Under the pieces are notes generated by a model. It worked only from the letters and a program-made list of their open reading frames with translations. It was not told where the DNA came from and did no database searches. Below are positions 36,599-37,529 of a stretch of DNA of 64,000 bases, piece by piece (position 1 is the stretch's first letter; each line of letters begins with the position of its first letter). This DNA is from a virus. Location: positions 5,833 to 69,832 of the IMG/VR virus record IMGVR_UViG_3300033182_000499. One strand, given 5' to 3'. The position numbers and the translations under genes were made by a program.

Positions 36599-37529
36599 TA
36601 GAAACTAAAAAATTGGTTTGCCTTTAAGTTGATGTTCTCAAAACTTTCCCAATCAAGGGCTTCGTAGAAATCAAGTATCTTCTTTCTTAACAGTCTATCA
36701 AACATTTTGTCGTAATCCGCATATGTGGATATAAAATCTATAACCTCTTGTGGGTCATCACTACCTTTGAGTGCCATAATGTCTAGGTTTAGTGGGTTTT
36801 GTTTAAGATACATCCACACAATCTTTTCACCATCGGTGATAGGTGGGATTTTATCTTCTAATCCCATTTCCTTTAAGAAGTTGTTGTAGTAAATGGCCGA
36901 CTTGACGTGAGCAGGTGTACCTTTCTTTACATCACTCAACCCACCTCTAATTGAATATTTCTTTATACCCTTTACACCTGTGGGTTTACCTACTTCCATA
37001 AATGGTCGTTTGGTTAGACTGTCTTTAAAGTCCAATAAATTACTATCCACCACATCTTTCTCAACACCATTGAGTAAGTCCATCAACATACTCTTCATAA
37101 ATGTCTTAAATGCCTTTGGAAAGTCAGACCTAACCACATCTAATCCTTTGTAATCAATATCATCTTTGGTTACACCGTTCTCCCAAATGATTTTCTGTAC
37201 GTATCGTTTCTTGGAAATCCATATACCTCTACGTGCGATATTCTCTTGTTTAATCTCAAACCGATGTGAACCTTGTAGGTTAAACATACGTTTGGCCATT
37301 ACGTCATAACTTTTGTTGATAAAGTTTTGTACTTCTTGTGCTACATCTGCAATCAAAGAACACATAAGTTCTTCATCGTCAACATCAATGTCAGGATTTT
37401 TGGCTCTAATTACAGGTATTGCCGATAAGAATGTAGAGTCGGTTAGGTGTCCGTGTATATAACCCACTCAAACGGATTACTTACACGGACATTAGAGCCT
37501 CCAACTCTTTTAATCTTTTTTATTTTCAT
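36598..37529 (-). CDS. Family B DNA polymerase, C-terminal subunit (motif C and thumb), predicted to need a +5-nt ribosomal hop (about 308 aa)
   Basis: ATG 37529 gives MKIKKIKRVGGSNVRVSNPFEWVIYTDT-stop; ACC(37448-46) TA ACC(37443-41) then GAC TCT resumes DSTFLS...KKRY...KGLDVVRSD. Confidence 0.8.

Follow-up and report, generated by a model that had tools for sequence, protein, structure and literature searches.

Results

Five nucleotides interrupt motif C of a T4-type DNA polymerase gene

We analyzed a 64,000-nt stretch of DNA (the window; positions 5,833 to 69,832 of IMG/VR virus record IMGVR_UViG_3300033182_000499) whose minus strand carries a split gene for a T4 gp43-type family B DNA polymerase (PolB) with a 5-nt gap, TAACC, between two codons of motif C. 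The gene lies in pieces that consist of a 592-aa N-part, 120 nt, a leader open reading frame (ORF), the gap and a C-part (Table 1). The N-part matches the Pfam families PF03104 (5e-26) and PF00136 (1.6e-25, profile positions 31–211), and the C-part matches PF00136. The exonuclease domain and motifs A and B expected of the T4 gp43 type are present, and motif C (YxDTDS), the catalytic aspartate region of family B polymerases, is complete only with the gap hopped. The leader ORF begins at ATG 37529–27 in the same frame as the 592-aa ORF, and its translation ends in ...EWVIYTDT at the TAA stop. The ACC codon that precedes the stop recurs at 37443–41, sharing an A of TAA, and is followed by GAC TCT ACA TTC (DSTF) in the frame of a 289-aa ORF (37467..36598) that a gene caller would begin at GTG 37467. 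A preliminary description made from the letters of the window had reported this leader ORF and its stop, the repeated ACC and the DSTF codons in the frame of the 289-aa ORF; on re-reading the sequence its coordinates were all correct.

Relatives drawn from IMG/VR and JGI metagenomes were compared with the window. Unsplit relatives with C-part identities of 93% (L004/5), 91% (L009–12), 81% (L013) and 69% (L006/14/15) encode a single uninterrupted polymerase reading ...YYNKRLNQNDDWVIYTDTDSTFLSAVP... (WVIYTDTDSTF). Against 7 unsplit relatives, all of them YTDTDSTF, the window has an exact 5-nt insertion (TAACC). Alignment with L004 places exactly 5 extra bases between ACC and GAC in the window, and 341 nt of the window replace 17 nt between NK.L and WVIY. 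Nucleotide identity to L004 is 0.73–0.77 in the 90 nt after the gap and about 0.85 overall, a dip that may mark a co-conversion tract from transfer of the mobile cassette described below. A 58% relative (L007/8/16) has the same split site and homologous tails and no gap (MKITQIKKTESHTHDWVIYVDTDSVF). YxDTDS is present in all 27 gap-less sequences compared; as the preliminary description stated, the hop alone gives this consensus. The 289-aa ORF was also searched against 5.8 billion proteins. Two hits come from other assemblies: P0001 (83% identical) starts with the same out-of-frame MGYIHGHLTDSTF, and P0009 (45% identical) starts MVHLHGYLTDSVF, its other frame back-translating to W-C-T-Y-T-D-T-stop. 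The gaps of these two were deduced from protein N-termini alone.

Table 1. Positions in the window of the split polymerase gene and its associated elements.
Feature	Position	Strand	Remarks
PolB N-part ORF, 592 aa	37650..39428	-	Exonuclease domain, motifs A and B, 48-aa extension; stop 37652–37650
C-terminal extension (CTE), SIELETDEG...SGFIHKN, 48 residues	37653..37796	-	Not present in unsplit relatives; other split forms have homologous tails
Predicted homing-endonuclease gene remnant, C-terminal ~44 aa	37510..37650	-	Overlaps leader ATG out of frame
GGAGG, possible accessory element, not general	37498..37502	-	Pairs with CC of the take-off and landing codons (minimum-free-energy fold)
Leader ORF MKIKKIKRVGGSNVRVSNPFEWVIYTDT plus TAA	37443..37529	-	Final 8 codons belong to PolB motif C
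Hairpin, 9 bp + A/A mismatch + 7–8 bp, loop 37473–37466	37449..37490	-	3′ arm ends on the base adjoining the take-off codon
Putative take-off codon ACC (Thr)	37446..37448	-	Sequence
Putative coding gap TAACC, 5 nt: stop TAA 37445–43, landing ACC 37443–41	37441..37445	-	
PolB C-part from resume codon GAC (DSTFLS...), 280 aa plus stop	36598..37440	-	Rest of palm, thumb

A stop-first gap recurs at the same codon in 11 lineages

IMG/VR was searched with four degenerate patterns around motif C. The pattern TAY AYN GAY ACN TAA NN GAY WSN NNN TTY matched 10 loci, one by chance and nine in PolB C-parts that have MKIK-type leaders and read Yx DT-TAA-C(C/T)-DS. Permitting 1–12 free bases after TAA gave 36 loci, and the 27 new ones comprised 2 PolB genes (TAAATG) and 25 unrelated matches. 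With TRR as the stop there were 12 loci; the new ones were all PolB genes with TGA (4/4), and no match of this pattern had TAG or TGG at the stop position. TGA followed by 1–12 free bases gave 20 loci, of which 16 were new: one PolB gene with a 7-nt gap (L110) and 15 unrelated matches. Together with the window, 17 contigs in 11 lineages have a gap of 5, 6 or 7 nt at the same codon, and C-part identity between gap lineages is as low as 41–48%. The exact-context pattern of the window's hop returned no further IMG/VR contig. Two other ACNTAACYGAY matches in the window (23839–23849 and 26649–26659) encode N/D-L-T-D in frame within ordinary ORFs and were therefore set aside as chance.

Y-(T/I)-D-T is kept in the frame that leads into the stop, where the differences are synonymous; the other frame varies and reads HGHL, HRHL, HRYL or HRYV. 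Selection on the sequence past the gap was estimated from L051 and L054, two gap-bearing members of one lineage. Over the 280 codons after the gap, synonymous divergence (dS) is 0.47 and nonsynonymous divergence (dN) is 0.029; the resulting dN/dS of 0.063 indicates that, with the gap present, the downstream frame is expressed and purifying selection on it is strong.

The gap starts with TAA or TGA in 11/11 lineages. In 5-nt gaps the triplet just ahead of the resume codon consists of the last A of the stop and the two bases after it; were the stop TAG, an ACN landing triplet would have no such A. Eight of the 11 lineages have ACN as the triplet ahead of the resume codon (ACC, ACT, ACA or ACG), two have ATG and one has GCG; the 6-nt gap ends in ATG, the 7-nt gap ends in GCG, and one 5-nt gap gives ATG. 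This triplet matches the take-off codon (ACG in seven lineages with L110 included, ACC in three, ACT in one) at 2 or 3 positions in every lineage, and the two are identical in the window (ACC/ACC). Because the 5-, 6- and 7-nt gaps between them represent each of the three frame relations, a single ±1 frameshift cannot account for the whole family; hopping or stop-restart can. ATG stands before the resume codon in L064/L085 (TAAATG) and L094 (TGATG), and the hairpin is kept there. These contigs are possible switches from hopping to stop-restart, judged from their codons.

A co-varying hairpin abuts the take-off codon

The RNA from 37535 to 37420 folds at −38.3 kcal/mol compared with −20.1 ± 3.4 kcal/mol for 200 shuffles (z −5.3), none of which was as good. 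The stem singled out in the preliminary description, GTCCGTGTA (37490–82) paired with TACACGGAC (37457–49) and extended by GTAATCC/GGGTTAT, agrees with the minimum-free-energy (MFE) fold and ends on the base adjoining ACC. The MFE fold extends the hairpin to 37508–37435, and the AA of the stop forms a 2-nt bulge in the window's fold. In 11/11 lineages the base before the take-off codon closes a 12–18-bp helix. For the 75 nt that precede take-off, folding energies are −17.6 to −27.1 kcal/mol in these lineages compared with −5.2 to −13.9 kcal/mol in 7 gap-less controls (2 split, 5 unsplit), none of which has a comparable helix.

An alignment of six lineages was used to follow the nine basal pairs. 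All 52 cells are paired (52/52), compared with 10–48% when the partner was slid by 1–3 columns as a control, and three basal pairs are changed on both sides (C-G/G-C/A-U, G-C/A-U). The 5′ arm lies in leader codons, and the pair changes swap a leader residue (Arg, Gly, Asp), tracking the Thr/Ile codon of motif C. Leader residues change while pairing stays, which argues for selection on the pairing and not on the peptide. Structure z scores over longer windows (159–180 nt) are −4.2 to −5.1 for the window, L051, L054 and L055, and −1.6 and −1.3 for the gap-less split forms L008 and L017. The folds contain no conserved downstream hairpin, and a gap of 5–7 nt holds no A-site (take-off) stem-loop. 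GGAGG sits 6 nt upstream of the window's hairpin; AGGAGG occurs at a similar place in L052, and the motif is absent in L051, L055 and L059. It could be an internal Shine-Dalgarno-like accessory or chance.

The gap is distributed like a mobile element

The element is ordered as extension, endonuclease, leader with hairpin arm, short PolB stretch and gap. A 275-aa ORF lies between the polymerase halves in L051/54/58/60 and L092, and copies are also present in L055. It has an N-terminal zinc finger and a conserved C-terminal block, with NUMOD3 repeats in the L055 paralogue. The PHROGs matches of this paralogue are named 'homing endonuclease', the Pfam matches are limited to NUMOD3 and a weak ROS/MucR zinc finger with no HNH match, and neither phmmer nor profile searches of the PDB gave a match. 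The conserved block ...VDGxxxxxNIVIEYDExHH... may, in our reading, resemble the Vsr-type (EDxHD) domain. A 9-kb locus in L055 holds four paralogous endonuclease copies, two of which flank the PolB C-part directly, one on each side.

The last codons of the 275-aa ORF overlap the ATG and MKIK codons of the leader out of frame. Window positions 37650–37510 align with endonuclease C-termini (50% over 44 aa, E 1.5e-6, tblastn), and this segment, including a 31-aa ORF MRRENIMKELDCKFVEIDYCNNIKVYENKKD (37605..37510), is predicted to be a decayed endonuclease C-terminus. Because the leader ATG at 37529 lies inside this remnant in another frame, part of the MKIK conservation may reflect dual coding. The MKIKxIK leader, a possible nascent-peptide signal, is conserved, yet it also occurs in the gap-less split forms P0003, P0005, P0006 and P0029 and is absent in L110.

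At least six changes of the gap state are required on a maximum-likelihood tree built from 27 C-parts. The tree pairs gap-bearing with unsplit genes (the window with L004/L012, P0001 with L013, L052 with P0030 and L051/54 with P0007/L021). This scatter over the C-part tree is the pattern of a mobile element and not of vertical descent. L110 (3336–5889) encodes an unsplit PolB whose 567-aa ORF runs into ...RGGSSVDVIHNQEDYVLYIDT-TGA with the hairpin and a 7-nt gap, TGAAGCG, kept. It is apparently a re-fused derivative of the cassette that lacks the short leader.

A split intein was considered for the added residues and rejected. The first CTE residue varies (S/S/Y/E/E/S), there is no TxxH and no terminal His-Asn, the extension and leader total about 70 aa, and no Hint-family match was found in Pfam at E ≤ 0.01. 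Complex prediction with the L008 extension (residues 536–605) and the first 32 C-part residues scored 0.01, which gives no verdict on binding.

The source is a T4-like phage

The source contig is 69.8 kb, comes from an uncultured virus in IMG/VR and has a completeness estimate of 36%. The neighboring genes in the window are T4-like and include a clamp loader, a sliding clamp and a DnaB-type helicase along with the family B polymerase; the source is an uncultured marine T4-like phage. The nearest named phage by protein search is Microcystis phage Mel-JY01, whose polymerase is 43% identical and unsplit, and a nucleotide search of GenBank phages gave no match. Directly after the polymerase lies a 64-aa ORF, MAKLLGEQHPMSKLSSGDVQQIRTLW... 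(36404–36598, minus strand), whose ATG overlaps the polymerase stop (TAATG). The window contains no tRNA genes. Rfam gave 4 matches in 36500–39500 at E ≤ 10, all under gathering scores with a best E-value of 2.5, and no intron or ribozyme; a group I or II intron or other known RNA was ruled out on this basis.

Four sequencing runs contained at most 0.33 of the sampled words, and their contigs leave 37401–37501 uncovered. Contigs of runs X1, X4 and X13 join 37400 to 37812 with 82 other letters between, corresponding to an unsplit relative. Run X2 contigs match 37502–37643 exactly and 37714–38040 with 4 differences, which are parts of the insert.

Discussion

The conservation of the gap in 11 lineages together with the co-varying hairpin makes it most likely that ribosomes hop the gap. 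We propose, with a probability of roughly 0.65, that TAACC is passed by a programmed short translational bypass, a +5 stop-hop from ACC to ACC. A hairpin-assisted ACC-to-ACC hop restoring YTDTDS had been suggested in the preliminary description, and the comparative data support it, with the hop itself inferred. To judge by the sequences compared, the interrupted gene is neither an assembly error nor dead. Hopping appears to be one process that explains all members and is the only reading that would give the universal YxDTDS.

The proposed mechanism starts from a T4-type PolB gene that a mobile homing-endonuclease cassette has split between motifs B and C, giving the N-part its 48-aa tail and the C-part its MKIK leader and placing TAACC between the motif C codons for DT and DS. 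Translation would begin at ATG 37529 and proceed through 28 codons to ACC (Thr), which would leave UAA in the A site. Termination is poor at a UAA with C after it. With the ribosome at ACC, the 3′ arm of the 16–17-bp hairpin would lie inside the ribosome directly behind the P-site codon, and the 5′ arm and loop would lie outside. A ribosome on the take-off codon would keep the hairpin melted. For every base that it moved forward, one more pair could form outside the exit, and re-zipping of the exiting mRNA would pull the message forward. Peptidyl-tRNA-Thr would release ACC and re-pair with the ACC 5 nt downstream. Decoding would resume at GAC to give ...WVIYTDT-DSTFLS..., the exact consensus, and the junction of the hop product would read ...EWVIYTDTDSTFLSAIPVIR, also given as ...NPFEWVIYTDTDSTFLSAIPVIR. 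The role assigned here to the hairpin would parallel that argued from gene 60 mutants, in which pairing of the exiting mRNA is the forward driver (Wills, Parsawar, Atkins, 10.1101/2024.12.09.627546), and stop-hops between matched codons have been shown with synthetic constructs (PMC5009743).

The gap would also destroy the motif C DNA target of the cassette's own endonuclease. It probably exists because motif C DNA would otherwise be cut by that enzyme, as has been shown for the T4 gene 60 gap and MobA (10.1101/2022.08.31.505936), and its presumed function would be immunity. A broader proposal is that marine T4-like PolB genes carry a natural family of 5–7-nt stop-hops unrelated in sequence to gene 60, in which the hairpin ratchet is the whole signal and the gap is selected for destroying the endonuclease target; we regard this generalization as evenly balanced between right and wrong.

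The serious rival to hopping is stop and restart, which would release a short peptide ending in ...YxDT, initiate the C-part at a nearby start and yield a non-covalent three-piece enzyme. The polymerase already tolerates one split, and several members carry classical stop-restart motifs that count against a hop: ATG is the landing triplet at the gap in L064/L085 (TAAATG) and L094 (TGATG), with the hairpin kept in these ATG variants, and GTG overlaps the TGA stop (GTGA) in L092–94. Starts further upstream in the C-part frame add to this, namely GTG 37467 in the window and a GTG and an ATG 17 and 15 codons upstream in L110. In five of the 11 lineages (L051/L054, L052, L055, L059 and L091), the C-part frame has no ATG, GTG or TTG from the preceding stop up to the resume codon, which weakens a start such as GTG 37467 as a general route. 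The GTG product in the window and L110 would moreover have unrelated residues and lack the first motif C aspartate strand, and restart does not require conservation of the ACN triplet. We consider restart improbable as the account of the family, and some lineages may have moved to it.

The remaining explanations are far less likely. A conventional −1 (or +2) frameshift at ACC_UAA would add residues to the catalytic loop, the product reading YTDT-LT-DS or YTDT-T-DS. In its favor, shifting is known to be stimulated when the A site holds a stop codon (PMC5009743), and decoding of the Thr codon that follows the gap would also keep that codon conserved. Against it stand the lack of a slippery sequence, a −1 codon (CAC or UAC) unpaired with the Thr anticodon, the three different shifts needed for 5-, 6- and 7-nt gaps at one spot, and a product other than the YxDTDS of all 27 gap-less sequences, which comes from the hop alone; we think a frameshift very unlikely. 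Removal or bypass of the five bases at the RNA level, by a hairpin-guided micro-excision before translation, is slightly less likely again. T4-like phages have RNA repair enzymes, the gap lies within a strong conserved structure, and the AA of the stop is bulged in the window's fold; against this, we know of no RNA micro-excision mechanism of this sort, Rfam finds no intron or ribozyme in 36500–39500, and the codon logic of stop first and matching triplet last would have no role. Least probable is a broken gene or an assembly error. The contig is metagenomic and 36% complete and the site is uncovered by the run contigs, but the design is repeated in 16 other IMG/VR contigs and in two proteins from other assemblies, the hairpin co-varies, and dN/dS downstream of the gap is 0.063. 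As a general explanation it is refuted by these comparisons.

Several further observations weigh against the hop. The lineages have one cassette ancestry in common, so lineage counts are not independent events. Take-off and landing by the same tRNA is certain in only 4/11 lineages. The take-off codon is ACG in 6, ACC in 3, ACT in 1 and ACA in 0 of 10 lineages, and the model gives no explanation for this bias; gap-less relatives often have ACA at the take-off position, and in five C-parts it makes up 27 of the 51 Thr codons. A weak local hairpin extends to the last base in the gap-less control L013 too, and structure z over 159–180 nt is weak in L059 (−3.0), L064 (−2.0) and L052 (−1.7). Unassisted stop-hops are known to run at low efficiency (PMC5009743).

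The closest known system is the T4 gene 39/mobA/gene 60 cassette, which has a 50-nt translational bypass (Manning and Atkins, 10.1101/2022.08.31.505936; Bonocora et al. 2011 on the gene 60 cassette, cited therein). In both systems a free-standing homing endonuclease splits an essential replication gene, an in-frame C-terminal tail is present upstream, and a downstream N-terminal extension overlaps the endonuclease ORF out of frame. A replaced homologous stretch is followed by a stop-first gap between matching codons, decay or loss of the endonuclease is frequent, with the gap left behind, and the element is scattered over the tree of the host gene. The host sequence here is PolB motif C, whereas it is the Toprim domain of the topoisomerase large subunit there. 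MobA is an HNH enzyme, in contrast to the zinc finger, NUMOD3, PHROG 'homing endonuclease' protein with no HNH match found here. The PolB gap is 5–7 nt compared with 50 nt for gene 60 (20 in one clade) and is too short for an A-site stem-loop; the 5′ hairpin directly adjoins the take-off codon here and lies 9 nt upstream of it in gene 60; take-off is from Thr and not Gly; and there is no sequence homology. The likeness to gene 60/MobA is therefore one of architecture and presumed logic, and not of sequence, host gene, endonuclease type, gap length or hairpin position.

Bypass elements in Magnusiomyces capitatus mitochondria are 27–55 nt long. Like the PolB gap, these numerous elements are short untranslated inserts hopped between matching codons, and unlike it they belong to a eukaryotic organelle and have no endonuclease cassette (PMC5009743). 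The synthetic Escherichia coli stop-hops (Weiss et al. 1987, in PMC5009743), whose title names +5 and +6 events, also have a peptidyl-tRNA crossing a stop to a matching codon; those events were low-level, engineered and free of stimulators, whereas the PolB site is natural and conserved, has a dedicated hairpin and lies in an essential gene. Fractured genes (Dassa et al. 2009, PMC2677866) are likewise in two parts with an endonuclease between the halves, and the intein-less SbcD-like case in that paper has extra residues at both broken ends. The split gp43 of Aeromonas T4-like phages (Petrov et al. 2006, in PMC2677866) shows that a T4-type PolB works as two chains. Neither these fractured genes nor split gp43 involves a coding gap or recoding, and the split inteins of the fractured genes are absent here.

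No description of a coding gap in phage PolB was found in the literature, supplementary tables lying outside the search. Bench demonstrations of efficient natural bypassing are limited to T4 gene 60 and genes homologous to it, and for yeast mitochondria bypassing has been inferred. According to a 2016 review (PMC5009743), shorter matched-codon counterparts are 'long presumed' with few known cases, and no natural in-frame stop-hop is known. A 2022 survey called the MobA bypass cassette unique (10.1101/2022.08.31.505936).

Genes of this kind are now annotated as truncated or frameshifted polymerases. If the hop is real, the PolB gap would be a natural miniature of the gene 60 bypass and a minimal, easily mutated system with many natural variants, a compact model for take-off and landing in which refolding of the exiting mRNA could be tested as the driver of forward movement. 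L110, which lacks the short leader, is a useful natural test case. The finding would be a second and far simpler answer to the same selfish-element problem and would mean that homing-endonuclease cassettes have arrived at recoding more than once to shield the site that they target.

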